DNA of 64,000 nt from an uncultured Gammaproteobacteria bacterium. GTDB taxonomy: Bacteria > Patescibacteriota > Patescibacteriia > Magasanikbacterales > GWA2-37-8. Shown in pieces: positions 808 through 53,748 of this stretch; position 1 is the first letter of the stretch, and the number at the start of each line of letters is the position of its first letter. The notes beneath the pieces are model-generated. The model worked only from the letters and a program-made list of their open reading frames with translations. It was not told the DNA's origin and ran no database searches. The stretch spans positions 132,143-196,142 of the forward strand of contig CAYZYP010000001.1 of NCBI GenBank assembly GCA_964482695.1, given 5' to 3'. Made by a program: the position numbers and the translations under genes.

Positions 808-1770
808 ATGATCGTTATTACAGGGGCAGCTGGGTTTATTGGTAGTTTTCTTGTTAATTACCTGAATGAGAAGAAAATAGAAGATCTAATTTTGGTTGAT
901 GATTTTACTAGACCAGATAAATTCTGTAATTTAATAGGTCGACGATATATAAAAAAAATTGAACGCGAATTTTTTTTAGATTGGTTAAATAAGAACAAGC
1001 CGATCATATCTTGCATAATGCACCTTGGAGCCAGAACAGATACTACCGAAAATAATTGGGATATTCTTGATAAATTAAATTTAAAATATAGCCAAAATCT
1101 TTGGAATTACTGTTCTTTAAATAATATACCATTTATTTATGCTTCTTCAGCTGCTACCTATGGAGCTGGAGAAATGGGGTATATTGATAACCACGATATA
1201 GTGCCATTGTTGAAGCCCCTAAATCTTTACGGGCAATCTAAAAACCTTTTTGATTTATGGGTGTTGCAACAGAGAAAATCACCGCCTTTTTGGGCGGGGT
1301 TGAAATTTTTTAATGTTTTTGGCCCCAATGAATATCACAAAGGAAGAATGGCGTCAGTTATTTTTCATGCCTATAATCAAATTGTTTCTAAAGGAAAGGT
1401 GTCTTTATTCCGCTCCCATCGTTTTGATTATAAAGATGGTGAGCAGAAGAGGGACTTTATATATGTTAAGGACGTAATAAAAGTTTGTGAATTTTTACGT
1501 CAAAACACCGACAGAATTAATTCTGGTTTATACAATGTTGGTACTGGCTTGGCCCGCACGTTTAAAGATTTAGTTTTAAGTGTTTTTATGGCTTTAAAAT
1601 TAGAGCCACATATAGTATATATAGATATGCCTATTGATATTAGAGATAAATATCAATATTTTACTCAGGCTGATATGCAAAAATTAAAAAAAGTTGGATA
1701 TAATAACAGTTTTTTTACATTAGAAAAAGGGATTGCAGAATATGTGCAGGATTATCTTGCTAAAAGATAA
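808..1770 (+). CDS. hldD: ADP-L-glycero-D-manno-heptose 6-epimerase
   Basis: N-terminal Rossmann motif MIVITGAAGFIGS, then YASSAATYG and YGQSK catalytic motifs; overall collinear with HldD/RfaD. Confidence 0.8.
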   Translation: MIVITGAAGFIGSFLVNYLNEKKIEDLILVDDFTRPDKFCNLIGRRYIKKIEREFFLDWLNKNKPIISCIMHLGARTDTTENNWDILDKLNLKYSQNLWNYCSLNNIPFIYASSAATYGAGEMGYIDNHDIVPLLKPLNLYGQSKNLFDLWVLQQRKSPPFWAGLKFFNVFGPNEYHKGRMASVIFHAYNQIVSKGKVSLFRSHRFDYKDGEQKRDFIYVKDVIKVCEFLRQNTDRINSGLYNVGTGLARTFKDLVLSVFMALKLEPHIVYIDMPIDIRDKYQYFTQADMQKLKKVGYNNSFFTLEKGIAEYVQDYLAKR

Positions 1771-1855
1771 AAGCGCTATAGTCTCGGCAGGTAAGGCATT
1801 TTTAATTATAGTGCGAAAGATGAAATTAAATTAATTAATAGTTATAATTTAAATT

Positions 1856-2791
1856 ATGTATCTGAAGTGTCCATTATGTGGTAACGCCAGCAAGGATTTG
1901 TTCTTAAACGAACTAGCCATGCGACAGTGCGTAAAATGCAGTTTGGTTTGGCGGCAGAACTTTGATTTACCAGCGGATCATTACGCTAATAAAGTAACGG
2001 ATATAGGAAGTAATAAATTAAAAGAGCGTGAGCAAAATTCTATTTTACGACTAAAACAATTTAAAAAACATGTGTTATTTGAAGATGTTTGCGATGTCGG
2101 GACGGGCGAAGGGGTATTTTTAAAAGTTTTACAAACACACGGTTGTAAGCGCTGTGTTGGTATAGAACCAAATAGGCTAATGGCAGATTTTTGGAAATTA
2201 AATAATTTACGAGTATTTAATGCTAAGAGCACAAAGGAAATAGTGGATTTAATTGAGAGAGAAAAAATAAAAGTTGTTACTTTATTTCATGTGATTGAGC
2301 ATATCCCAGATCCTGTCGATTTATTAAGTGAAATTAGAAGTGCCTTGCCTAGCGGAGGTATTGTGGTGGTGGAAACTCCAAATTTAGAAGCTTATTCCAT
2401 GAAAAAGAGTAGTTATCGACATAAATTAATATATCCAGAACATTTATTTTATTTTAATACTCACAATTTTTTGCAGATGTTTAATAAAACAGGTTTTAAT
2501 GTTGTGGCTAATGGCAAACGCGACTTTAATCAAAATTACTTAGGTATTCATGAATGTTTGTGGCGGCTCGGGTTGACTAATAATAAATTTAAAGTTAAAA
2601 ATTATTCTGGACGTTCAAATTTAATAGATGGATGTGAAAATATTAATTCCGTAGTGCCATCGGTTAATTTACGCCCGGTAGGTTTAAAGAAAAATAGTAT
2701 CCGTTTTTTAAATTTTATTCTAAGTCAGGCAGTGCAGGTTTTAGGCAGATTAGACTATCAGTGGGTTATTGCTAAAAAAATATCAACATAG
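1856..2791 (+). CDS. Class I SAM-dependent methyltransferase with N-terminal C4 zinc ribbon
   Basis: CPLCGN...CVKCSLVW zinc ribbon followed by SAM motif I VCDVGTGEGVFL; this architecture resembles sugar C-/O-methyltransferases. Confidence 0.7.
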   Translation: MYLKCPLCGNASKDLFLNELAMRQCVKCSLVWRQNFDLPADHYANKVTDIGSNKLKEREQNSILRLKQFKKHVLFEDVCDVGTGEGVFLKVLQTHGCKRCVGIEPNRLMADFWKLNNLRVFNAKSTKEIVDLIEREKIKVVTLFHVIEHIPDPVDLLSEIRSALPSGGIVVVETPNLEAYSMKKSSYRHKLIYPEHLFYFNTHNFLQMFNKTGFNVVANGKRDFNQNYLGIHECLWRLGLTNNKFKVKNYSGRSNLIDGCENINSVVPSVNLRPVGLKKNSIRFLNFILSQAVQVLGRLDYQWVIAKKIST

Positions 2792-2817
2792 ATCCCCGCA
2801 GGTTTGACCGCGAGGCT

Positions 2818-3951
2818 TTATGGTGATTGGTAAACAGACGTATAGTAAAAGGCAGTTTTATTAACATCAAACCGGCTAGCTTTTTCTAAAGCCTTTAAAG
2901 ATAATTCTTTTTTTAAATTACTGTTATTGACCAGTAATTTTATTTTTTCGTTAAAATCTTGGGGGCTATCTAATTTATAAAGCAAACCGGTGTTTTTAAT
3001 CATTTCATGATTGCCGCCAATATCCGTAGCTAATATTGACAAGCCAGCGTACAAAGCCTCTATTAGAGTAATAGACATGCCCTCGTATCTAGAAGGTAGA
3101 ACAAAAATATCAAAAGCTTTTAGATATTGGTAAGCATCTGGCATGTCGCCAACCAAGTAAACTGTATTTTTTAAATCTAGGTTGGTAATTAAATTTTCGT
3201 ATTTTTTCTTTTCAGGTCCGTTACCAATAATAACATAATTTAAATTAGGATAATCTTTTTTTAATTCAGACGCCTGTTTAATTAAAAATTCATAATTTTT
3301 TTGATAAGCCAGCCGACCAATGGAACCAATAACGAGTTTATTTTTAAAAGATGCACGCAATTTTTCTTCTAACATTATTTTAGCTTGTTCGCGTGAAAAG
3401 AAGTTTAATTCGTTTTGATCCAGCCCGTTGTAAATTACTACAGCATCGCGCGTTAAGCCAAGCTTTTGGCTTGCATAATGATTTTCATTACTAACGTATA
3501 TTTGTTTATCGATAAAATTTAATAGGATTTTAAAGATTAATTTATAAAAAATAATCTTTATTTTAGACTGAGTGTAGTTTGTATCTAGCATAGATAAACC
3601 ACGAAAGGTAAAAACAGTTTTTGGTTTATTTTTAGCTAGTTTGGCTGATAACGCCCCTAGCAAAGCATTGCTACTATTAAAATGGACAACATCAAAGTGG
3701 TTAGAATTTAAGAATTTTTTAAATTTCCAAATAAAACGTAAATTAGTAATTATGTTAAAAGTCCGGCCAAGGTCGGGAAATTTGGTGTAAGGTATTTGTT
3801 GTTTTTCTAATTTTTGTTGCAAGAATGTTCCCGAACCAAAGCCAACTGTCACATCGAGACCTTGTTCAATTAGTTTTTTGGCCAAATTAAACACCGATAC
3901 TTGCGCGCCGCCGGTCTCGCCTTTGGTAATAATAATAAGGATTTTTTTCAT
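2818..3951 (-). CDS. Glycosyltransferase family 4 (GT-B, group 1)
   Basis: C-terminal EGMSITLIEALYAGLSILATDIGGNHEMI motif (E-x7-E type) typical of GT4. Confidence 0.8.
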   Translation of the reverse strand: MKKILIIITKGETGGAQVSVFNLAKKLIEQGLDVTVGFGSGTFLQQKLEKQQIPYTKFPDLGRTFNIITNLRFIWKFKKFLNSNHFDVVHFNSSNALLGALSAKLAKNKPKTVFTFRGLSMLDTNYTQSKIKIIFYKLIFKILLNFIDKQIYVSNENHYASQKLGLTRDAVVIYNGLDQNELNFFSREQAKIMLEEKLRASFKNKLVIGSIGRLAYQKNYEFLIKQASELKKDYPNLNYVIIGNGPEKKKYENLITNLDLKNTVYLVGDMPDAYQYLKAFDIFVLPSRYEGMSITLIEALYAGLSILATDIGGNHEMIKNTGLLYKLDSPQDFNEKIKLLVNNSNLKKELSLKALEKASRFDVNKTAFYYTSVYQSP

Positions 3952-7297: not shown

Positions 7298-7906
7298 ATG
7301 TTAAAGAAAAATATTAAAGACCTGCGTTCCATCGATTATTTTAAAGAATATTCAAAATACATTACTCATTTATTGGCTAATTTAAATTTTCATATTATTG
7401 ATGAAGTTGCCAAGTTGATAGTTGCAACAGCAGAAAAAGGTGGCACAATTTATTTTGCTGGCAATGGCGGTAGCGCGGCCACAGCTTCTCATTTTGCGAC
7501 CGATTTTTCGCATGGTTTGGTAGGCGGTACAGGTAAATTGGTAAAAGCAGTTAATTTAGCAGATAATGTTTCTTTAATAACAGCGATTAGTAATGATAGT
7601 GGTTATGAAAATATATTTATCAATCAGCTGAATAATTTATTGGGTAAAAAGGATATTTTGGTGCTTATTTCGGCTAGCGGTAATTCGCCAAATATAGTTA
7701 AGGCAGCTGAATTTGCCAAGACAAAAAAAGCATCGACAGTGGCCTTTGTTGGTTTTGACGGTGGAAAATTAAAAGATATTTGCGATTATGTCGTGCAAAT
7801 AGAAACCAAATCAGGCGAATACGGCCCGGTAGAAGACGTCCACACAATACTTGATCATATGTTAGCTTCCTATTTAATTTTAAAGTTGCAGGGAAATAAA
7901 AATTGA
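7298..7906 (+). CDS. gmhA: SIS-domain sugar-phosphate isomerase (sedoheptulose-7-phosphate isomerase-like)
   Basis: GNGGSAATASHFATDFS and ISASGNSPN motifs; length (202 aa) fits GmhA. Confidence 0.7.
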   Translation: MLKKNIKDLRSIDYFKEYSKYITHLLANLNFHIIDEVAKLIVATAEKGGTIYFAGNGGSAATASHFATDFSHGLVGGTGKLVKAVNLADNVSLITAISNDSGYENIFINQLNNLLGKKDILVLISASGNSPNIVKAAEFAKTKKASTVAFVGFDGGKLKDICDYVVQIETKSGEYGPVEDVHTILDHMLASYLILKLQGNKN

Positions 7907-7910
7907 GTAT

Positions 7911-8669
7911 ATGTTAGCTAAAGATTTGCGAGTATATTTGACTATCGCTAAAAAAACCGCTAAACAAGCCGGAGATTTTTTAGCTAATTATACGCATAGT
8001 AATTTGCAAATTTATTACGACAAAAACAAGGATATTAAAATTAATGCAGATAAACAGAGTGAAAAAATAATTATAGATAATTTACAAAAACAAACTAATT
8101 TTTCTATTCTATCCGAAGAAGCCGGCTTGATAGTGGGGGGAAATAAGGACAATTTATGTTGGATTGTCGATCCTTTAGACGGCTCTTTAAATTTTTCTCG
8201 GCAGCTTCCTGCTAGCTGTATCTCTATAGCTTTGTGGGAGAAAAATAAGCCTATTTTAGGCGTTGTTTATGATTTTAATCGGCAAGAGATGTTTAGTGGT
8301 GTGGTAGGTCAAGGGGCTTGGTTAAATGGCTTTTTAATCACGGTTTCAACGGCCAATCAGTTAAAGAAAGCGGTGGTGGCCACTGGTTTTCCTTCTCAGA
8401 CTAACTATGATGAAAAAGCTTTGTTAGACTATGTAACTAAAGTACAAAAATTTAAAAAAGTTAGATTATTGGGCAGCGCTGCCTTGTCTTTGGCTTATAT
8501 AGCTTGCGGACGAGTAGACGCCTATATGGAAAGAGACATTATGATTTGGGATATAGCTGGTGGTGTGGCGATAGCTTTAGCCGCAGGCGGAGAGATTCAA
8601 TATATGAATAAAATTAAGAAAAATACTGTTGATATTTTGGTAACTAATTCTTTGATTAACTTTAATTAA
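7911..8669 (+). CDS. Inositol monophosphatase-family sugar phosphatase
   Basis: WIVDPLDGSLNF (DPxDGT-type) metal-binding motif and overall IMPase/SuhB layout. Confidence 0.75.
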   Translation: MLAKDLRVYLTIAKKTAKQAGDFLANYTHSNLQIYYDKNKDIKINADKQSEKIIIDNLQKQTNFSILSEEAGLIVGGNKDNLCWIVDPLDGSLNFSRQLPASCISIALWEKNKPILGVVYDFNRQEMFSGVVGQGAWLNGFLITVSTANQLKKAVVATGFPSQTNYDEKALLDYVTKVQKFKKVRLLGSAALSLAYIACGRVDAYMERDIMIWDIAGGVAIALAAGGEIQYMNKIKKNTVDILVTNSLINFN

Positions 8670-17748: not shown

Positions 17749-18843
17749 ATGCCAAATAGACAAGGCGTGGACCGTCTTTTTTTATCAGCCTTTTTTGTGC
17801 TTTTATTAACAGGCTTAATCATGTTGACTTCGGCCAGCGCCTCTATTGGTTATGCCCAATTTAGTGATACCTACTTTTTTATTAAAAAACAAATGTTATT
17901 TGGTTTATTGCCCGGGATAATATTATTTTATTTATGTCTAAAAATAGATTATCGTCTTTGGCAAAAATTTAGTTGGTTAGTATATTTTTTATCTCTAATA
18001 TTATTAATATTAGTTTTTATTCCGGGATTAGGCGTAATAATAAACGGCGCGCGTAGTTGGTTGGATATATTTGGTTATACTTTTCAGCCAGCTGAATTTG
18101 GTAAATTAGCAGTTGTTTTAATAATGGCTAACTTATTATCAGAACCACGTCGCGATTTAAATGATTGGAAAAATGGGCTTTTACCGGTTTTAGCTGTTAT
18201 AGCTCCAATGATTCTTTTAATAGCCGGCCAGCCGGATATTGGCACCCTGTCTATTCTGGTAGTAATGATTTTTGTTATTCTCTATTTAGCCGGTTTGCGT
18301 AAAATTTATTTAGTAATTTTAGGTTTAGTTAGTCTAATTGCTTTTGTTGGCTTACTGCTGCTAGCTCCATACCGCGTGGCTCGTTTAACCACTTTTTTAC
18401 ACCCAGAATTAGATCCTAAAGGAATTGGCTACCAAACAAATCAAGCTTTTTTAGCTATTGGTTCTGGTGGTATTTGGGGATTGGGTTTAGGGCACTCTAG
18501 ACAAAAATTTCAATATTTACCAGAAGTACACGCTGATTCAATATTCGCTATTATTGCCGAAGAAATGGGGTTTTTAGTCACCCTAGCGATTGTTTTACTA
18601 ATTACTTTTTTTGGCTTAAGAGGTTTTAAAATAGCCAAAAAAGCGCCAGATGATTTTAGTCGTTTACTAGTGTCAGGAATTATGATATGGTTTATGTGGC
18701 AATCCTGGCTTAATATCGGCGCGATGGTTGGTGTTTTTCCGCTTACTGGTGTGCCTTTGCCTTTTATTAGCCATGGTGGGTCGGCTTTAATGGTAGGGCT
18801 CATGGGGGTGGGGATAGTGGCCAGGGTGAGTAAGCAGATATAA
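17749..18843 (+). CDS. ftsW: SEDS-family cell-wall glycosyltransferase (FtsW/RodA)
   Basis: Ten TM helices; PAEFGKLAVVL and ISHGGSALM motifs characteristic of FtsW/RodA/SpoVE. Confidence 0.85.
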   Translation: MPNRQGVDRLFLSAFFVLLLTGLIMLTSASASIGYAQFSDTYFFIKKQMLFGLLPGIILFYLCLKIDYRLWQKFSWLVYFLSLILLILVFIPGLGVIINGARSWLDIFGYTFQPAEFGKLAVVLIMANLLSEPRRDLNDWKNGLLPVLAVIAPMILLIAGQPDIGTLSILVVMIFVILYLAGLRKIYLVILGLVSLIAFVGLLLLAPYRVARLTTFLHPELDPKGIGYQTNQAFLAIGSGGIWGLGLGHSRQKFQYLPEVHADSIFAIIAEEMGFLVTLAIVLLITFFGLRGFKIAKKAPDDFSRLLVSGIMIWFMWQSWLNIGAMVGVFPLTGVPLPFISHGGSALMVGLMGVGIVARVSKQI

Positions 18844-18893
18844 AGGAGGTTAAAATTTTGGCAAAGAAGCACGCGTAAATGTTATTTCTTGCA

Positions 18894-19018
18894 CCAGCGA
18901 ACACATACATCTTTTTAGGAAAAAAAGCAGTTATCCGTTTGCCTTTTTGCCTACGTTTACACTTGGCAAAAAGTTTTCCGACCACTTTTTTTCCTAAAAA
19001 GATGTATGTGTTCGCTGG
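18894..19018. repeat. Intergenic palindromic element, copy 1 (conserved core shared with 52911-53024)
   Basis: About 34-bp perfect outer inverted repeat (CCAGCGAACACATACATCTTTTTAGGAAAAAAA / rc) enclosing core AAAGCAGTTATCCGTTTGCCTTTTTGCC ... GGCAAAAAGTTTTCCGACCACTTTTTT. Confidence 0.7.
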
Positions 19019-19047
19019 TAAGTTATAAAAAGTTAGTATTTTAATTT

Positions 19048-20061
19048 ATGAATTTATTAGTTACCGGCGGAGCTGGGTTTATCGGCTCAAATTTTATCCG
19101 TTATATTTTAAAAAAATATCCAGACTACAGAGTAGTTAATTTGGATTTGTTGACTTATGCCGGAAATTTGGAAAATTTGTGCGACGTTGAAAAAAATAAA
19201 AATTATAGTTTTGTAAAGGGGGACATAGTGGATAAAGTTTTAGTAGAAAAATTAGTAAAAGATAATAATATAAATTTAATAGTAAATTTTGCGGCGGAGA
19301 GCCATGTTGATAGATCAATTATAAGTAGCGCGGATTTTTTGCGGACAAATATTTTAGGCACCCATAGTTTATTGGAAGTAGTAAAGAAGAATAGCAAAAT
19401 ACGTTTTCATCATGTTTCCACCGATGAAGTGTATGGCTCTTTGGGGCCTACAGACCGCGCGTTTAATGAAAGTACTGCATATGACCCGCGGAGCCCGTAC
19501 AGCGCTTCCAAGGCCGCCTCTGATCATTTGGTAAAAGCTTTCTATCATACTTATGATTTGCCAATAACCATATCTAATTGTTCTAATAACTACGGGCCTT
19601 ATCAATTTCCAGAAAAATTACACGGACTGTTTATTACCAATTTATTAGAAGGTAAAAAAATACCGCTTTACGGCGATGGTTTAAACGTGCGTGATTGGCT
19701 TTATGTTGAAGATCATTGTTCGGCCATAGACGTAATTATTCATCGTGGTAAAGTAGGCGAAACTTATTGTATAGGAGGTAATTGTGAAAAAACTAATATA
19801 GAAGTAGCTCGTAAGATTTTGCAGCTACTTAACAAAGACGAAAGCATGATAGAGCATGTGCGCGATAGGTTAGGCCATGATAGACGTTATGCTATAGATT
19901 CTACAAAAATTAAACAGGAGTTAGACTGGGAGCCGCAGACTAATTTTGGCAATGGCATGGAAAAAACAGTTGAGTGGTATAAAAATAACGTGGATTGGTG
20001 GAAAAAAATAAAGACAGGGGAGTATTTGGAGTATTATGAAAAACAATACAAAGAAGTATGA
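19048..20061 (+). CDS. rfbB: dTDP-glucose 4,6-dehydratase
   Basis: MNLLVTGGAGFIGSNF; YSASKAASDHLVKAFYHTY; extended SDR. Confidence 0.9.
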   Translation: MNLLVTGGAGFIGSNFIRYILKKYPDYRVVNLDLLTYAGNLENLCDVEKNKNYSFVKGDIVDKVLVEKLVKDNNINLIVNFAAESHVDRSIISSADFLRTNILGTHSLLEVVKKNSKIRFHHVSTDEVYGSLGPTDRAFNESTAYDPRSPYSASKAASDHLVKAFYHTYDLPITISNCSNNYGPYQFPEKLHGLFITNLLEGKKIPLYGDGLNVRDWLYVEDHCSAIDVIIHRGKVGETYCIGGNCEKTNIEVARKILQLLNKDESMIEHVRDRLGHDRRYAIDSTKIKQELDWEPQTNFGNGMEKTVEWYKNNVDWWKKIKTGEYLEYYEKQYKEV

Positions 20062-25843: not shown

Positions 25844-26220
25844 TTGTCATCCCGAGCCGCAGCGAGGGATCTCTGTCTCAATTATTTATGATTAAAAGGA
25901 GGAACCATAATTATTATGTTTATATAATGGCCAGTGTAAGTTTTATAATGTATATAGGTGTTACTAATAATTTAATTAGAAGAGCAGAAGAGCACAAACA
26001 AGAAATATTAGATGGTTTTAGTAAAAAATATAAAACAAAAAAATTAGTTTATTATGAATGGTTTATTAATATCAATGATGCCATTAGAAGAGAAAAAGAA
26101 TTAAAAGGTTGGCGTAGGGAAAAGAAGATAAATTTAATTAGAAGCGCTAATCCTCGGTGGGAAGATTTGTACAAAGAGTTGATTGAGACAGAGATCCCTC
26201 GCTGCGGCTCGGGATGACAG
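25844..26220. mobile_element. Compact GIY-YIG element bounded by perfect 35-bp terminal inverted repeats
   Basis: Left end TTGTCATCCCGAGCCGCAGCGAGGGATCTCTGTCTC (25844-25879); its exact reverse complement at 26185-26220; the enclosed ORF ends inside the right repeat. Confidence 0.6.
25888..26217 (+). CDS. GIY-YIG nuclease-superfamily protein
   Basis: YYVYIMAS...MYIGVTNNLIRRAEEHK matches the GIY-YIG core (Y-VYIL ... YIG-T-NL-RR--EH). Confidence 0.8.
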   Translation: MIKRRNHNYYVYIMASVSFIMYIGVTNNLIRRAEEHKQEILDGFSKKYKTKKLVYYEWFININDAIRREKELKGWRREKKINLIRSANPRWEDLYKELIETEIPRCGSG

Positions 26221-36858: not shown

Positions 36859-36870
36859 ATCCTAGCCTTT

Positions 36871-36915
36871 TTGTCAAGGGTGGGGTTGACAAGTTTGGCT
36901 AAAATATGCTATTAT
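36871..36915 (+). promoter_or_regulatory. Sigma70-like promoter with overlapping operator-like inverted repeat
   Basis: TTGTCAAgggtggggTTGACAA inverted repeat; TTGACA (36886-36891) - 18 nt - TATTAT (36910-36915). Confidence 0.5.
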
Positions 36916-36971
36916 TCGCCACAAGTTTTCTATCTCTAACCGTTTTTTCTTGGAAAGGAAGAGGAAAAAGA

Positions 36972-37175
36972 ATGTCGAGACCGACGACAAGAGAACGAGA
37001 CCACCTCGATCTGGAACTGGCTCAGCTAGAAGATCTCCGGGCAAATGATTTTACTTTGCCTCCAGATCTTGATCTGGACGAAGTGCTCGGCAAAGAAGGT
37101 TTCAAAGGATTTACCTTAGGACAGGCTGGGTTGCTCACCTGCAAGCCCAAGCCGTCGCGGCGGCTGCGTTCCTAG
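36972..37175 (+). CDS. 67-aa hypothetical protein, foreign (GC-rich) codon usage
   Basis: GAGGA SD 6 nt before ATG; MSRPTTRERDHLDLELAQLEDL...; CTG/GAC/CTC codons dominate. Confidence 0.4.
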   Translation: MSRPTTRERDHLDLELAQLEDLRANDFTLPPDLDLDEVLGKEGFKGFTLGQAGLLTCKPKPSRRLRS

Positions 37176-37187
37176 GTGGATCCAAAA

Positions 37188-37252
37188 CCCATACCGCTCG
37201 TGCGCTTCTTGGCCCTTTCGAGGGCTGACTTGCGTCGGGCGGTATGGGGTTG
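37188..37252 (+). other. Long GC-rich nested hairpin (terminator or structured RNA)
   Basis: 10-bp outer stem CCCATACCGC/GCGGTATGGG enclosing GCCCTttcgAGGGC; followed by UUGUUCGUUCU. Confidence 0.35.
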
Positions 37253-37492
37253 TTCGTTCTGCCTCGCATGCCGTAGCTTTGCGAAGCGAAACGAAGGCAT
37301 GTGGATAACTCTGTTTGACTATGCTGTAACAGTATGATAGTTTAAGAATAATATATTAAGACTTTATGAATTTTAATTTACATACAACCCCAACCTGGAC
37401 AAAGCGTACTATTTTGGTAAAACGCTATTTTGGTTTTTGGGGTGAGGTGTGTAAAATTAAAAAATAAAAAGTTTACAAAATAAATAAACACA

Positions 37493-37530
37493 ATCACCCT
37501 GAAGGCCAATAGAGCGTCAGGGTGATTTTT
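37493..37530. terminator. Rho-independent terminator (bidirectional)
   Basis: ATCACCCTGA-14 nt loop-TCAGGGTGAT + TTTTT; A/T-rich tract also on the opposite side. Confidence 0.65.
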
Positions 37531-37602
37531 AAACCACAAATTTTTACACGAATTAACACAAATATGGAATTTAATTCGTGATTAGTGTAAATTTGTGGTT
37601 CG
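37531..37602. promoter_or_regulatory. Long imperfect palindrome (operator / cruciform candidate)
   Basis: AACCACAAATTT...GAATTAA / TTAATTC...AAATTTGTGGTT arms (12 + 7 bp matches) around an 11-nt centre. Confidence 0.35.
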
Positions 37603-37719
37603 TTCTTTACAAAAAAGTGTTTAGCCAGAGGAAAAGATTTTAAAAAATGTTTTTCTTTGGCTGGGCAGTTGAGTCTAGCATTTCAGGTCGGCACAAAGCC
37701 GGCCATCAAGGAGCGAATC

Positions 37720-37893
37720 ATGGAAACCACCGAAAACACCCCCCAGACCACCAACCAGTCACCTCGCCCTGTATTGGACGCTCACCACGAGCGGGTGATA
37801 CTTCTCTTCGGAAAGAAGAAAGTGTCCCACCAGCTCAAGGTGGATCCGTACACAGGTGAGGTGCTGGAGGTTCCGGCCTTTCTTCTGCGCTGA
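37720..37893 (+). CDS. 57-aa hypothetical protein, GC-rich codon usage
   Basis: AAGGAG SD 6 nt before ATG; METTENTPQTTNQSPRPVLDAHHERVILLFGKKKVSHQLKVDPYTGEVLEV... Confidence 0.4.
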   Translation: METTENTPQTTNQSPRPVLDAHHERVILLFGKKKVSHQLKVDPYTGEVLEVPAFLLR

Positions 37894-38059
37894 GCAGAGG
37901 AAGCCGGCCACGTGGTCTGGGCAACGGCGCGCAAAACATCGTGCGCCGTCCCATTAGAGAATATAATTAGATTGTTAGTTTATATTCTGTAATGGCGCCA
38001 GGAACTTTGTATGTTCGTGGCAAAAAATAATAAAAATTGCCGAGAAAGGAGAAAAAAAC

Positions 38060-38212
38060 TTGGCAAAAGAGAAATGCAAAGTCTGCCCGCATTGCGGGCA
38101 ACAGTTCAAAAAGAAGCATGGGAACAGGTGCCCAGTTTGCGGCCGATGTCGTTATGACAAAACCGGTTGCAAAAACGGAGTTTCGGCTTCAAGCTCAAAA
38201 AAGGAGAAGTAA
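38060..38212 (+). CDS. 50-aa Cys-rich zinc-ribbon peptide (TTG start)
   Basis: AGGAG 8 nt upstream of TTG; translation LAKEKCKVCPHCGQQFKKKHGNRCPVCGRCRYDKTGCKNG... (CxxCxxC-x11-CxxCxxC); stop immediately before a 12-bp hairpin terminator. Confidence 0.45.
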   Translation: MAKEKCKVCPHCGQQFKKKHGNRCPVCGRCRYDKTGCKNGVSASSSKKEK

Positions 38213-38217
38213 AAAAT

Positions 38218-38246
38218 CCACCCCGACACCAAACGTGTCGGGGTGG
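38218..38246. terminator. Hairpin terminator
   Basis: CCACCCCGACAC-caaac-GTGTCGGGGTGG; A6 tract upstream gives a U-tract on the minus strand. Confidence 0.6.
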
Positions 38247-38337
38247 TACGAACTTCCTTTATATGATATTTTGTAAAAACAAAGTAATTTTTTGGTTTTA
38301 AAAATGTTTAAAATATGGTATAATAATTTCGTTTTAG

Positions 38338-38400
38338 ACTCCTCCTTAATCCCCCCCCCTCTGTAAGGGGAGAAGAGTGTATTCCTAATGCTGTACTCTT
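38338..38400. repeat. GC-rich hairpin mini-element in 5'-UTR of membrane-protein gene
   Basis: CCCCT-ctgta-AGGGGAG plus AAGAGT...ACTCTT stem, downstream of extended -10 TGgTATAAT (38316-38324). Confidence 0.45.
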
Positions 38401-38417
38401 ATTAAGAGAAGAAAAAT

Positions 38418-39389: not shown

Positions 39390-39469
39390 AAGCGTGTGAA
39401 AATATTTTTTATCACGGCCAATAGCAGTATATACTGCTATTGGCCAAATGGCGTAAAAAATAATAATTT

Positions 39470-46461: not shown

Positions 46462-46581
46462 TTTTAACTTTATAACTATTTTGTATAGGCTTGTGTATAC
46501 AAATTTTATAAAAATAAGCTAAAATTAGGTAATTAAATTAGATATAAAATTGTATAGGCTTGTGTATACAAATTTTATAAA
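46462..46581. promoter_or_regulatory. Two 32-nt perfect direct repeats (69-bp period), each containing an inverted repeat
   Basis: TTGTATAGGCTTGTGTATACAAATTTTATAAA at 46481-46512 and 46550-46581; internal TTGTATA...TATACAA palindrome; lies in the divergent region between the HTH gene and the ECF sigma gene. Confidence 0.55.
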
Positions 46582-46612
46582 TTTTAAATTTAAATTCTAA
46601 ATTGACACGGAG

Positions 46613-46686
46613 TGTCATCCCCGCGTAAGCGGGGATTCAGTTAGTAAAATAGTATGGGCTGGATTCCCGCTTACGCGGGAATGATA
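46613..46686. repeat. Degenerate member of the TGTCATCC inverted-repeat family (paired hairpins)
   Basis: GTCATCCCCGCGTAAGCGGGGATTC ... GATTCCCGCTTACGCGGGAATGATA. Confidence 0.45.
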
Positions 46687-49081: not shown

Positions 49082-52000
49082 ATGTCCGATATATACAAAA
49101 TGACAAAGAAAGTCTTTACCGTCGGCGTAGTAGTAACCACAATTTTGTGGTCATTGGGCGCGGCAGTATTGGTGCCAACCGTGGCAAACGCGGCTGACGC
49201 TTCCTGCCCAACCTTAAAAGCTGGCGACAACGTCAAGGTAGACGATGTCACCAAGCCTGCTATCTACTCTGTTGGTGCAGACATGAAAGTCTATTATTAC
49301 CCAACTGGCGATGAATTCAAGAGTTGGAATACCGATGAAAAATACGCTGGTTACTATACAAAAGTAACTCAGACATGTTTTGATAGTTTAGCATTACCAT
49401 CTACTTATCCAGGTGGCGTAAACTATCGCGCTGGTTCATACTTAGTTAAACGCGGTTCATCTGACAAATTGTATGTGGTCATGCCAAACAACACCAAGAA
49501 AGAAATTACCGTGGCCGCTGCCAAGATTTTGTATGGTACTAGCTATACTGTAAAAACAGTCGGTGATGCTTTCTGGCCAAACTACGTCACAACTGCCACT
49601 GGCACGATTGACGTAAATTCCAGCGGTATCATCAATCCACAAGAAGGTCAATTCGTAAAAGTAGGTACTGTGACCTATTATGTTGATTCCAATAGCACTT
49701 TGAAAGAAGTTGATTCTGCTGGCCTAACTGCCAATAGAGTTAAAACTGCTTTTGTCCGCATTTTGGATTCAAAGTATATCACTGGTATGACAATCTCGTC
49801 CGCCAAGATTAGCGCCGAGGTTACGACAATGACTGATAGGACACAGGGAGCTGGTGGAAGTGTTGTAGTAACTCCTCCAGTAACAGGCACAGGCACCTTG
49901 TCTGTTAGCTTGTCTGCTACCACCCCAACCGGCGGTAGTATCGCGACTGGCGCGAATGCCAACATGTTAGGTCTTACCTTAACAGCTGGCTCAACAGCCG
50001 TAAAAATAAAGAAAATTGCTGTTACCCAATATGGCTTGTCTGATACCAACGACTTGGAAAATTTAAAAGTCGTTGATGAAACAGGCTTGTTAATAGGCAA
50101 TTTGGTAAGCGCTGTCAATAGCGTTCGCCAAGCTGTATTTACTTTCCCAACACCAATAGATATTGCTGCCAATGGCACCAAGACCTATTATGTGCGCGCT
50201 GGTATTAATTCTACCAACGGCACAACCGGCAATACCGTTATTTTGGGTGTTGCCGCTGCTACTGATGTTACCTTGGATTCCGGTACTGTAAGTGGTACTT
50301 ATCCAATTAAAGGTAATACCTTTAGTATCGTAGCTACTACAGTTGGCTCTGTATCTGTAACAAACGATGGCAGTGTAACAGACACTACCCCAGATGCTGG
50401 TGATACCAATGTAGTATTAAATAAATTCAAAGTTACCGCTGGTTCTACCGAAGATGTTACAATAGAAGACATGACTTTCTTGGAATCTGGCACAGCTTCT
50501 ATTAGTGACTATTCAAATTTAGAGTTATGGGATGTTGTCGCGGCCAAATCATTGGGTGAAATTTCCACCTGGAATGCCGAAGGCAAAGCTCATTTCAAGA
50601 ATCTAAATATCAAAGTAGAAAAAGGTAAATCTTATCGCTTTGAATTACGCACCGACGTATTAAGCGGCTCTGGTTTAACTATGAACGCCGACTTAGTAGA
50701 CGGCAGTGATGTACTCATGGGCGTAAAAGGCAATAGTTTTGCTTTCTACTTAACACCAAGCGTAACAGGCTCTTGGACAGGTAAAGGCGGAAGCGGTGCT
50801 ACCGTAACAGACCAAACAATTAACAGTGGCAGTCTAAATGTAAGTGTTTCTTCCAAATCTCCGGCAGCTGGCAATGTTTCCGCTGGCGATGATATTTTGG
50901 TAGGCGCTTTCAGCTTTGAAGCCAGAGGTGAACAAGTGTTGGTAACTAATTTAGTTGTCAACTTTGATCTCACTACCATGCTTTATAGCGAAGTTACCGC
51001 TGTTAAAGTAAAAGATAGTGCTGGCAGTATAGTTGCTGGTCCAGTAGACGCTGCTACCGTATCGGGTGGTGGTGAAGTTACTTTTTCTGATAGTTTTATA
51101 GTACCAATTGGCCAGAACGATTATTACGTTTATGCCACAATTTCAACAAATGTTAGTGCTGGCGATATAATCCAGACTGATATTGATGCGGCCGGTGATA
51201 TTACCTGCAAAGGTTATTCAACAGGCACATCTATTACTCCAACCGTAAGTAGTGCGGCTGCTGCCAGTTTGACAGTTAGCTCAGCTGCTTTACAAGCTGT
51301 TACATTAACCACCCCAGCGCTGCGTGATATTGCTCCTGGCGTCCAAGATATGGTCTGGATGACTGGTGCTTTGCGCGCTTCTAACTCTGGCGAGGATATC
51401 GTGGTTACAACCGTTGTATTAGAAGATACTTTGGGTGATGCGGGTGATAATGCCAATGATATAGACAACGTAGAAATTTGGGCAGACTTAACCAATGATA
51501 GTTCAACTCGCGGTGATGTCTATGAAACAAAAGTGTCTAACACCGAACAGTTTGTTGATTCAGCTGCTACCGACGAAACTTTGTCTTTCACTTTGTCTTC
51601 GGCTATTACTGTGCCAAAGAACGGTGAAATAAAGATAGCTGTTCTTGCGGATTTAGCCGCTGGCGCCACAGCCACTGATACCCATACTATTAGTTTTGAT
51701 ACTGATAGTGGTGATGTATCTGGTTATGGCAAGTCTACAGGAATAACAGCTAATGCTACACCAACTGGCGCTGGTCAGACAATGACTGTTGCCGCCAATG
51801 GCACCTTAACATTAACTGTTGATGGATCTTCTCCATCTGCCAAATTAGTTTATGGTGGCCAAACCGATGTTGAATTAGCTATATTCCGTTTAGCTGCTAA
51901 CAACGTAGAAAATCTTGATGTTGATAGCATTAAGATTACCGATGACGGCAGTGATAATGCTGTTGCCACATATAAATTCTATGTCGGCACTACATTATTA

Positions 52001-52750
52001 GGTACAATTTCTGGTGGTGCGACAGCCGAAATTTTCTTGGCTGATAACACCGTTTATGTACCGGCTAACGACAATATCAAGGTAACCGTAAAAGGTGACA
52101 TGTCTACTGTTGATGGTTCAACTGTTGCCAATGGCAATACCGCAGTAGTTACTGTGGCTGCCGCTGGTGATATTGATACCACCGGAAAGTCATCTGGCGC
52201 GGCTGTTGATAGCACACAGACTAGTGTAGATGCTGCTATCCACACCTTATATAACGCTTATCCAAGCGTAGCGTTCGCCAACGATACACCAGGCGGCACA
52301 TTGATTCCAAATGCCAATTTATTGGTAGCCAAAATCAATATTACCGCTAATGGTAATGATGATATTACATTCCAGAACGGTGATGGCAGCAGCTTATTGT
52401 TGCAAGTAGCCGCTTCTAGAGGCGATGCTTCGGGTGGTACTGATGATTTAATCATCAAAGACAAGAATGGCAACACTTTGTGTTCCACTTCCACCTATAG
52501 CTTTGTAACCACAACCGAATGGACTTGCGACTTCTCTACCAATTCGTTAACAGTCGCCAAAGGCACGACAGAGGTTATCTATGTCTATGCCGATACTGCC
52601 AGTTTTGAAGACAGTGGTGATTCTATCCAGATTTGGTTAGATGATACTGCTGGCGACATTGATTGGGGTATTAACGGTTCTGGTTCGTTCAACAAGGGCG
52701 ATATCATTTTCCGTGGTGATAAATACGGTGGCGCTTTCAGCAAGGCCTAA
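49082..52750 (+). CDS. 1222-aa secreted T/G/S/V-rich cell-surface protein (S-layer/adhesin-like)
   Basis: Signal peptide ending VANA-AD; long repetitive beta-rich segments; no LPXTG. Confidence 0.55.
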   Translation: MSDIYKMTKKVFTVGVVVTTILWSLGAAVLVPTVANAADASCPTLKAGDNVKVDDVTKPAIYSVGADMKVYYYPTGDEFKSWNTDEKYAGYYTKVTQTCFDSLALPSTYPGGVNYRAGSYLVKRGSSDKLYVVMPNNTKKEITVAAAKILYGTSYTVKTVGDAFWPNYVTTATGTIDVNSSGIINPQEGQFVKVGTVTYYVDSNSTLKEVDSAGLTANRVKTAFVRILDSKYITGMTISSAKISAEVTTMTDRTQGAGGSVVVTPPVTGTGTLSVSLSATTPTGGSIATGANANMLGLTLTAGSTAVKIKKIAVTQYGLSDTNDLENLKVVDETGLLIGNLVSAVNSVRQAVFTFPTPIDIAANGTKTYYVRAGINSTNGTTGNTVILGVAAATDVTLDSGTVSGTYPIKGNTFSIVATTVGSVSVTNDGSVTDTTPDAGDTNVVLNKFKVTAGSTEDVTIEDMTFLESGTASISDYSNLELWDVVAAKSLGEISTWNAEGKAHFKNLNIKVEKGKSYRFELRTDVLSGSGLTMNADLVDGSDVLMGVKGNSFAFYLTPSVTGSWTGKGGSGATVTDQTINSGSLNVSVSSKSPAAGNVSAGDDILVGAFSFEARGEQVLVTNLVVNFDLTTMLYSEVTAVKVKDSAGSIVAGPVDAATVSGGGEVTFSDSFIVPIGQNDYYVYATISTNVSAGDIIQTDIDAAGDITCKGYSTGTSITPTVSSAAAASLTVSSAALQAVTLTTPALRDIAPGVQDMVWMTGALRASNSGEDIVVTTVVLEDTLGDAGDNANDIDNVEIWADLTNDSSTRGDVYETKVSNTEQFVDSAATDETLSFTLSSAITVPKNGEIKIAVLADLAAGATATDTHTISFDTDSGDVSGYGKSTGITANATPTGAGQTMTVAANGTLTLTVDGSSPSAKLVYGGQTDVELAIFRLAANNVENLDVDSIKITDDGSDNAVATYKFYVGTTLLGTISGGATAEIFLADNTVYVPANDNIKVTVKGDMSTVDGSTVANGNTAVVTVAAAGDIDTTGKSSGAAVDSTQTSVDAAIHTLYNAYPSVAFANDTPGGTLIPNANLLVAKINITANGNDDITFQNGDGSSLLLQVAASRGDASGGTDDLIIKDKNGNTLCSTSTYSFVTTTEWTCDFSTNSLTVAKGTTEVIYVYADTASFEDSGDSIQIWLDDTAGDIDWGINGSGSFNKGDIIFRGDKYGGAFSKA

Positions 52751-52910
52751 TCATAGGTTTTGCTAATGCTGGCAGGGTTAACCTGTTTAGCACCGTAAGG
52801 ACAGGACATGTCCTGTCCTACAACCAACAAGCACCTCTCGCGCAAGCGGGGGGTGTTTTGTTTTTTTGCTTTGACAGTTAGAGGATTTTAGTTTAAAATA
52901 ACATCAAGTA

Positions 52911-53024
52911 TTAGTGGCAAATACATATTTTTTTATAAAAAAGCAGTTATCCGTTTGCCTTTTTGCCTTTCGGCAAAAAGTTTTCCGACTACTTTTTTAT
53001 AAAAAAATATGTATTTGCCACTAA
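52911..53024. repeat. Intergenic palindromic element, copy 2
   Basis: 32-bp perfect outer inverted repeat TTAGTGGCAAATACATATTTTTTTATAAAAAA / rc enclosing the same core as copy 1 with a shorter inner loop (GCCTTTTTGCC-tttc-GGCAAAAAG). Confidence 0.7.
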
Positions 53025-53058
53025 TATAAAGCGTAAATTTTTTTTATTAATATTTTTT

Positions 53059-53748
53059 ATGGAACAAGATGAATTAGAAGTAAATTTGCAATCAAATAAA
53101 ACACCGGAAATAAAAAAGAAGAAATATTGGTGGTATATTTTGCTGGTTGTTATTTTGTTAATTGTTGGTGGTTGTTTGGTGTTGGTGAAATACAAAGTAT
53201 TAAATATTGGAATACTTAATATTAAAAAGATAGGCGAAATTATAAAGCCGGACAAACAAGCAGATACTATTTTGAAAATAGATTCTAGCGAAGTGGCAAA
53301 AGTAGATACCAGTAAATGGCGTGATTTCGTTTACGAATATTTTGGCTATAAATTAAAAGTGCCGAACAATGTTATGGTTGGTGGCTCTACAGATTACAAT
53401 GCCACTTCTAGTTTAAGGCAAGGAGACAAAAAATATAGTTTAGCTGTAAGCAGATCAGATGAATATTATATTTATTTTTTCCCAGAAGGCGGTTTTAGTT
53501 ATGCTAATAAGCAATTATATAAAACTCCCATAAAATCATATAGTTCCAAAATAAATTCAAAGCCTGTTACTGTTAACCAATATGATGATGAAAATATTCA
53601 TATAATTTTTGACAATTACCATGGCTTTGTGATTAGAGTCTTTGTTGACAAAGATAAACAAGAATACTGGCCAGTGGTAGAAAAGATTTTGCAACTAGCT
53701 GATTTAACAGATAACATTCCGGCAATTACAACTAGCACAAAGAAATAA
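53059..53748 (+). CDS. Hypothetical membrane-anchored protein
   Basis: Start placed at first ATG after the palindromic element; one TM helix (WWYILLVVILLIVGGCLVLV). Confidence 0.45.
   Translation: MEQDELEVNLQSNKTPEIKKKKYWWYILLVVILLIVGGCLVLVKYKVLNIGILNIKKIGEIIKPDKQADTILKIDSSEVAKVDTSKWRDFVYEYFGYKLKVPNNVMVGGSTDYNATSSLRQGDKKYSLAVSRSDEYYIYFFPEGGFSYANKQLYKTPIKSYSSKINSKPVTVNQYDDENIHIIFDNYHGFVIRVFVDKDKQEYWPVVEKILQLADLTDNIPAITTSTKK

Follow-up and report, generated by a model that had tools for sequence, protein, structure and literature searches.

The stretch of DNA analysed here, referred to throughout as the window, covers 64,000 nt of contig CAYZYP010000001.1 (assembly GCA_964482695.1) and contains two copies of a long palindromic hairpin element. 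Copy 1 (18893-19019, + strand, 127 nt) is situated in the 204-nt spacer between an FtsW/RodA-family gene (17749-18843) and rfbB, the gene for dTDP-glucose 4,6-dehydratase (19048-20061), which is followed by rfbD and glycosyltransferase genes. Copy 2 (52909-53026, + strand, 118 nt) comes after an open reading frame (ORF) of 1222 aa (49082-52750) that has no Pfam match and lies in the 5' untranslated region of an operon comprising the gene for a 229-aa membrane protein, nrdR, and the pyruvate kinase gene. All flanking genes of both copies are on the + strand, and the hairpins end 28 nt before the ATG of rfbB at 19048 (copy 1) and 32 nt before the ATG at 53059 (copy 2). This confirms the gene context given in a preliminary description of the window, which had placed ftsW and rfbB around copy 1 and a giant surface-protein gene ahead of copy 2. 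Homologues of the flanking proteins are named from Candidatus Magasanikbacteria, Moranbacteria, and other Patescibacteria, on contigs from groundwater metagenomes.

Each copy consists of two outer arms that are perfectly complementary to each other and an asymmetric core between them. In copy 1, the 35-nt left arm (18893-18927) is 100% complementary to the right arm (18985-19019), and the 57 nt between the arms (18928-18984) are made up of CAGTTATCCGTTTGC, an inner stem (18943-18951 paired with 18965-18973) closed by an apical loop (18952-18964), and then TTTTCCGACCA. The left arm of copy 2 (52909-52943) is likewise the perfect complement of its right arm (52992-53026), and the core (52944-52991) has the sequence of copy 1 except for a T at 52989 and an apical loop of 4 nt (52968-52971) on its inner stem (52959-52967 paired with 52972-52980). 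Pairing in copy 2 extends with one mismatch to 52947/52988, giving arms of 39 nt (52909-52947 and 52988-53026) that are 97% complementary and 40 nt apart. The layout is otherwise common to both copies. The inner end of the arm reads T5-7, N2-3, A6-7, and G; the asymmetric segment is CAGTTATCCGTTTGC on the left and TTTTCCGAC[C/T]A on the right; and the inner stem is formed by 9 bp between CTTTTTGCC and GGCAAAAAG. The apical loop is 13 nt long in copy 1 (TACGTTTACACTT) versus 4 nt in copy 2 (TTTC), and the core carries a direct repeat of the 8-mer GTT[A/T]TCCG with a spacing of 43 or 34 nt. The element is A+T-rich, with a GC content of 27-38%.

The two copies are the two longest inverted repeats of the window. 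When up to 3 mismatches were allowed, the 29-nt left half-core and the 27-nt right half-core were each found twice in the window and on the + strand only, where 0 occurrences are expected by chance, and the existence of a two-copy palindromic element at these positions, as first described, was thereby borne out. Compared with shuffled sequence, both copies fold with z-scores of -12 to -16 as RNA and -12 to -13 as DNA. Both element sequences recur in assemblies made independently for the same organism, which rules out an assembly artefact; one short-k assembly breaks within the left arm, as a palindrome would predict. The core has the same orientation in 5 of 5 independent assemblies, and both cores are on the + strand in the same orientation relative to the flanking genes.

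The key new result is that, by comparison with related genomes, both copies are lineage-specific insertions. At the first locus, the gene order L27/FtsW/RfbB/RfbD is kept in four relatives (FtsW 68-73% identical), and the ftsW-rfbB spacer measures 9, 4, and 4 nt in the relatives L021, L041, and L042 and 70 nt in L022, compared with 204 nt here. In the closest available relative as judged by RfbB (88% aa and 87% nt identity), neither a hairpin nor any similarity was found in the 92 nt upstream of rfbB. At the second locus, the close relative L043 (nrdR 85% identical at the nt level and 96.6% at the aa level) keeps the terminator and the TTGACA-17-TAAAAT promoter ahead of the operon almost base for base, and its stretch from the -10 hexamer to the ATG is about 60 nt long and without a hairpin, compared with 159 nt in the window genome. 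The element was absent from the orthologous sites of every relative examined, and homology of its arms with the relatives' spacers was not significant.

Some of the spacers compared have features of their own. The ftsW-rfbB spacer of L022 (1938-2007) contains an imperfect hairpin with G-U pairs at 1949-1982, and the 7-mer TTTTCCG of the right half-core (18973-18981 in the window) also occurs in the ftsW-rfbB spacers of L022 (GTGTTTTCCGCTGG) and L044 (1-92; TTATTTTCCGCTAGCG), where it may be due to chance or be an ancestral motif of this spacer. In L043, tandem repeats of the ACGAAATTT type follow nrdR (1660-1743) and are absent at the same place in the window.

The signals around copy 2 could be assigned with the help of the same comparison. 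An intrinsic terminator of the 1222-aa gene (52829-52858, + strand) is a host feature conserved in the relative, and it is followed just upstream of the element by the promoter-like site TTGACA-17-TAAAAT (11/12; 52871-52899, + strand). Because the relative without the element keeps both hexamers and their spacing, this promoter belongs to the host locus and not to the element, and because a separate conserved terminator stands upstream of copy 2, the element is not needed as a terminator there. Copy 2 starts 9-11 nt after the -10 hexamer, so that the hairpin would start within a few nt of the predicted transcript 5' end. The notion that a promoter forms part of the element was rejected. Upstream of copy 1, the hexamers of TTGGCA-12-TAAATG are wrongly spaced, and no promoter-like site was found there in the scan. 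Immediately behind the ftsW stop codon, at 18844-19028, an AGGAGG and a 6-codon mini-ORF starting with TTG are succeeded by an ORF of 49 codons (18879-19028) that overlaps the mini-ORF as TAAATG, spans the entire copy 1 hairpin, and stops 20 nt before rfbB. A small protein as the product of the element was also rejected, as the same frame in copy 2 is without a start codon and has a stop right after the core.

The arms and cores of the two copies were then compared. Aligned without gaps, the arms agree at 20 of 35 positions, which are distributed unevenly: none of the outermost 9 positions is shared, compared with 20 of the inner 26 (77%). Each of the 15 differences is mirrored on the opposite arm; one-sided changes, mismatches, and G-U pairs are all absent. 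The arms are self-complementary over a perfect 35 bp in each copy, as had been claimed for about 32 bp, but they are not completely different in sequence, as had also been claimed, since the lack of any relationship is confined, in that alignment, to the outermost 9 bp. The core, which had been described as identical apart from a C/T position, is the same at 44 of the 45 aligned bases outside the apical loop; the exceptions are the C/T difference at 18982/52989 and the loop itself. The inner 26 bp follow the pattern CA[C/A]ATACAT[C/A]TTTTT....AAAAAAG, and none of 20,000 random 26-mers drawn from the window matched as well. The near-identical cores and 77% identical inner arms show at the sequence level that the two copies have a common origin.

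Counted as events, the inner-arm changes amount to about 3, namely two C/A changes and one AGGA/TTAT block, the latter of which turns the T-run/A-run of copy 2 into a perfect mini-palindrome. The outermost 9 bp can be read in two ways. With a 1-nt gap, 6 of 10 positions are shared and the other 4 are transitions (p about 0.04); if these ends are homologous, at least 8 mirrored events would be required and the core would be clearly more constrained than the arms. Alternatively, the outer 9 bp may be non-homologous, in which case the shared unit would be about 100-109 bp, with a copy-specific 9-bp inverted extension in each copy.

The preliminary description had treated the covariation of the arms as an argument for a functional RNA or protein-recognised site, and this was not established. 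Compensated arm changes are weaker evidence for selected structure than was held there, because only two sequences and about 3 inner events are available, no G-U pair occurs, and template switching in DNA can keep the arms matched without selection. The absence of G-U pairs among about 70 arm pairs would be unusual for an RNA helix evolving through G-U intermediates and would be expected of a DNA palindrome homogenised by template switching. DNA template switching homogenises the arms of inverted repeats and has been proposed to keep bacterial inverted repeats perfect (PMC5941160, PMC8604942). Such quasipalindrome correction explains the mirrored arm differences, the lack of G-T or G-U pairs, and possibly the outer 9 bp without any selection for pairing (PMC5941160, PMC8604942). 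It is, however, a mutational process, and leaves unexplained both the presence of the same core at two loci 34 kb apart and the core's resistance to becoming palindromic. As both copies are insertions without a counterpart in relatives, duplicated or mobile DNA is indicated first.

Perfect short-spacer palindromes are about six-fold enriched in the window (19 sites versus 3.1 in shuffles), which indicates that processes that generate or preserve palindromes are active in this region of the genome. Solo arms, i.e. empty palindromes of the same family, were not found elsewhere in the window. Two perfect zero-spacer palindromes were noted, the first of 30 nt (GGCCAATAGCAGTAT|ATACTGCTATTGGCC; 39416-39445) between co-directional genes and with no T-run after it, and the second of 22 nt (AGGACAGGACA|TGTCCTGTCCT; 52798-52819) within the 1222-aa gene's 3' non-coding region, some 90 nt upstream of copy 2. 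The latter, together with about 50 nt around it, is absent from the close relative L043.

No match to the element was found in Rfam at the gathering score, at which only two tRNAs were called in the window. In E-value mode, only long-hairpin matches of the miRNA-precursor type were returned (at most 45 bits against thresholds of 71-245), and a known RNA family was rejected. A tRNA or tmRNA fragment was likewise rejected as the identity of the element, there being no tRNA or known RNA match to the core, a question that the preliminary description had raised. A CRISPR or TIGR-like array was rejected because there are no tandem arrays. Literature searches turned up no account of an element like it from bacteria of the Candidate Phyla Radiation. 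In about 60 kb of sequence from relatives, no copy was detected either by nhmmer or by a covariance model based on the two copies.

Taken together, these data are best explained, tentatively and with a probability of roughly 45%, by a low-copy, lineage-specific palindromic insertion element that resembles a MITE (miniature inverted-repeat transposable element) and is co-transcribed with its flanking genes as a long hairpin. The element would have been copied into two transcribed spacers of a Magasanikbacteria-like lineage after its split from the nearest sampled relatives, presumably through a trans-acting factor that moved or copied it as DNA. The checked window ORFs, those of about 90 aa or more, do not include such a factor. 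The near-invariant asymmetric core would be the sequence-specific part, recognised by a binding or mobilising protein, and the strictly Watson-Crick arms would owe their perfection mostly to processes acting on the DNA. Through intrastrand template switching, a change in one arm would be copied to the other, and the palindrome could also grow into flanks that differ between the copies; alternatively, the copy-specific outer arms might have arisen by insertion of the element at the centre of a short pre-existing palindrome. Where transcription reads through the element, as promoter and operon context suggest, a hairpin of 35-39 bp would form in the mRNA, at the 5' end of one transcript (copy 2) and between ftsW and rfbB in the other (copy 1). 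This hairpin would probably be a determinant of double-stranded RNA processing or stability as an RNase III-type substrate, either as a by-product or through later co-option, and the predicted 35-39 bp would supply the continuous duplex of at least about 20 bp that RNase III-type enzymes require. Both the mobility mechanism and the effect at the RNA level are inferred.

Several observations weigh against an insertion element of this kind. Inspection of the flanks revealed no target-site duplication at either copy, the copy-specific flanking bases being inverted and not direct, and the inverted-repeat termini are the least conserved part of the element, which is the opposite of a terminal inverted repeat bound by a transposase. 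The spacers of the relatives are too diverged to align, so that an empty site here means absence of the element and not a base-precise junction of insertion or excision. Only two copies are known; the search with nhmmer and the covariance model found no third in about 75 kb of the genome (the window plus about 11 kb from the same genome). Apart from chance matches in unrelated coding DNA, none of 185,579 species-representative genomes contained the exact bipartite pattern of the core, and a scan of metagenome contigs for the exact core gave chance matches only, although this is a weak test because the collection did not return even the source contigs; exact-pattern scans of either kind would miss diverged cores. 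Viral contigs scanned for the half-cores gave chance matches only, and blastn searches of phage and plasmid collections returned nothing. With no core match across the public collections, nothing points to a wider mobile family. A scan of the window ORFs from about 90 aa upwards, which left out small ORFs, including those at 36.9-38.4 kb, identified no transposase, integrase, reverse transcriptase, or HUH/Y1 enzyme. Finally, the core differs at 1 of 45 positions and the arms at 15 of 35 (Fisher p = 6e-6), a contrast that may stem from genuine selection acting on an RNA or a protein site instead of from recent copying. On an event count the contrast is weak, because one substitution and one loop indel in the core stand against about 3 changes in the inner arms. 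A stand-alone gene for an 89-aa GIY-YIG nuclease domain is present among the glycosyltransferase genes (25948-26217), and no link between it and the element was found.

The element might instead be a selected, cis-acting structured RNA of the sense strand that controls the stability, processing, or translation of the downstream mRNA, with internal loops that bind a protein and an outer helix that need only pair. Such a role is somewhat unlikely, though the placement of the copies speaks for it, as both are sense-oriented within transcription units, end at a similar distance from the next start codon, and, in the case of copy 2, put the hairpin at the extreme 5' end of a transcript from a promoter conserved in a relative. 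Protein-binding hairpins also typically combine a core that does not vary with arms whose changes are compensated and an apical loop that is free, and L022 has its own imperfect ftsW-rfbB hairpin with G-U pairs. Among known structures, the RNase III hairpins that contain an internal loop (the phage T7 R1.1 type and the rnc and pnp leaders) and the stabilising 5' stem-loops of the ompA type resemble the element in being read through and located at the transcript 5' end or between cistrons. They share with the predicted structure of the element a long duplex, an asymmetric internal loop, and a short capping stem; they differ in that they are not repeated insertions and that their stems are shorter and imperfect. 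The case for such an RNA is reduced by the small sample of two sequences, the lack of G-U pairs in the arms, and a sense-strand core helix that contains C-A mismatches and pyrimidine-rich loops and folds worse than its antisense. In addition, the downstream operons have no common function (sugar genes of the rfb set in one case, and in the other a membrane protein, nrdR, and pyruvate kinase), no Rfam family matches, and no relative examined possesses the element. A rather unlikely variant, which draws on both ideas, is a hitherto undescribed class of hairpin elements among bacteria of the Candidate Phyla Radiation, in which an invariant, asymmetric internal-loop module of about 45 nt would be mounted on a long stem whose sequence may vary as long as pairing stays perfect. 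The module would be either the recognition site of a hairpin-specific enzyme by which the element is inserted at palindrome centres or a new protein-binding regulatory RNA at mRNA 5' ends; insertion at palindrome centres would result in copy-specific inverted flanks in place of direct target duplications.

The remaining explanations are weaker. A site acting at the DNA level, either as an extruded cruciform or as a duplex bound by a host protein that reads the asymmetric core and regulates the adjacent promoter or operon, would agree with the strictly Watson-Crick arms, as predicted from DNA symmetry, with the AT-rich tracts flanking the core, with the direct repeat within it (GTTATCCG ... GTTTTCCG), which the protein might read, with the promoter adjoining copy 2, and with the 7-mer shared with two relatives' spacers. 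It is nonetheless improbable, as arms that differ between copies cannot be the sequence-specific site of one dimeric protein, the spacing of the 8-mers differs by 9 bp between copies, no recognisable promoter stands beside copy 1, and no candidate regulator is encoded nearby. An independent small-RNA gene on the minus strand, antisense to the flanking genes, is suggested by a better fold on that strand (-76.5 and -64.4 versus -67.0 and -58.6 kcal/mol on the plus strand), where the helix of the core is continuous, includes G-U pairs, and has a 5x5 internal loop rich in purines (GAAAA/GCAAA), and where the variable core position changes from G-U to A-U, in place of an A-C mismatch changing to A-U on the plus strand. 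The promoter-like match on the minus strand (9/12) is present at copy 2 only, with none at copy 1, and is within the expectation from shuffles; no convincing minus-strand terminator and no Rfam match were found; and a perfect duplex of at least 35 bp is atypical of a stable bacterial small RNA, all of which makes this gene very improbable. Long perfect inverted repeats around an asymmetric segment, upstream of a polysaccharide operon and a membrane-protein gene, are also what an invertible switch (inverton) would look like, in which a recombinase flips the core and thereby varies the expression of downstream surface-related genes. We consider this highly improbable, given that the segment is just 40-57 bp long and without an internal promoter-like site, that the inverted repeats differ in sequence between the loci, that no recombinase gene was found in the window, and that one orientation only was seen in 5 of 5 assemblies, the last being a weak test as assemblies and not raw reads were compared. 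An unusually long, duplicated intrinsic terminator, possibly bidirectional, is scarcely credible despite the intergenic hairpin and the A7/T7 tracts that flank the core. The T tracts are base-paired inside the long stem, the sequences after the complete stem (TAAGTTAT and TATAAAGC) contain no T-run on either strand, and no terminator was called at either copy in the scan. Copy 2 is downstream of the separate conserved terminator and promoter, and copy 1 is at a junction that spans only 4-9 nt in relatives. A terminator at either site would silence the downstream genes, and it was rejected for this reason together with the missing U-run, in agreement with the preliminary description, which had argued against a simple duplicated terminator.

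Returning to the insertion element, its likeness to known families was assessed. The Correia/NEMIS elements of Neisseria, the enterobacterial ERIC/IRU elements, and the RPE of Rickettsia are, like it, 100-170 bp long, non-coding, and A+T-rich, with ends that pair into one long stem-loop. As with MITE-like repeats in general, it resides in spacers within transcription units and shows filled and empty sites among related genomes at both loci, with junctions that are not base-precise. Correia elements, which have been proposed to be cut by RNase III, and ERIC elements, which alter how stable the flanking mRNA is, both form long stem-loops in transcripts (PMC2229807). Unlike these families, the element has two known copies and no TA or other target-site duplication; its centre is invariant and its termini are least conserved, whereas conservation in the families is uniform or the reverse; and its arms are perfect over 35 bp yet differ between copies. 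No related insertion sequence is known for it, and it has no sequence similarity to Correia, ERIC, or RPE. The element is therefore a variant of the MITE-like kind and not a member of a known family, and it is classed as a variant only because two defining features of MITEs, conserved termini and a target-site duplication, are lacking.

Integron attC sites and REP/REPIN sequences are likewise structured palindromes; they are recognised as hairpins, their structure is partly more conserved than the sequence, and REPINs show compensation between arms. In attC sites, the base of the stem is conserved (R''/R' boxes, RYYYAAC/GTTRRRY) and the centre varies, which is the reverse of the arrangement seen here. 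The stem bases of the element, ACCAGCG/CGCTGGT and TATTAGTGG/CCACTAATA, do not correspond to these boxes, and no integrase was found among the checked window ORFs. REP/REPIN sequences are G+C-rich palindromes of 20-40 bp with a GTAG/CGTC tag and many copies, associated with a RAYT transposase. The element, by comparison, is A+T-rich, has two copies and no terminal tag, and no RAYT/Y1 transposase was found among the checked window ORFs.

Other non-coding features were observed in the window. Between genes for a GT4 glycosyltransferase and an EamA transporter, a stretch of 1.5 kb (36859-38417) is without an ORF of at least 90 aa and contains two G+C-rich patches (53-58% versus a background of about 36%), with no Rfam match at E <= 0.1. 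Its only ORFs are small, encoding 89 aa, 78 aa, and a 50-aa CxxC-rich zinc-ribbon-like peptide (38060-38212), and the stretch may be a foreign islet, gene remnants, or structured RNA. Inside it, a long imperfect hairpin (37533-37600; CCACAAATTT...AAATTTGTGG) has an inner stem of ACGAATTAA/TTAATTCGT and an asymmetric bulge, and shows no sequence similarity to the two-copy element. At 46470-46684, a sequence of about 35 nt (TTGTATAGGCTTGTGTATACAAATTTTATAAA) is present in two direct copies, after which come two G+C-rich hairpins inverted relative to each other (46615-46684); the whole lies upstream of genes that encode an ECF sigma factor, a DUF5667 protein, and the 1222-aa ORF. Among the relatives, two features of L021 (GCA_900089805.1), at 1134-3728 and 7685-8650, were noted: a gyrB with an intein domain, and an rve-family integrase gene followed by a 30-nt near-palindrome (8588-8650).

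As a caution, the element illustrates that compensated changes in a DNA palindrome are not enough on their own to demonstrate selection for an RNA structure. Should it be no more than a low-copy palindromic insertion, it would add little to the known range of small repeats in bacteria. If the core is a recognition module, it would mark a new protein-nucleic acid interaction in a very poorly studied bacterial group, and if the copy-specific inverted flanks reflect insertion, the mode would be unlike classical transposition. It also provides a concrete case of a compact, symbiont-type genome that tolerates a perfect 35-bp hairpin at the start of an mRNA and inside an operon.

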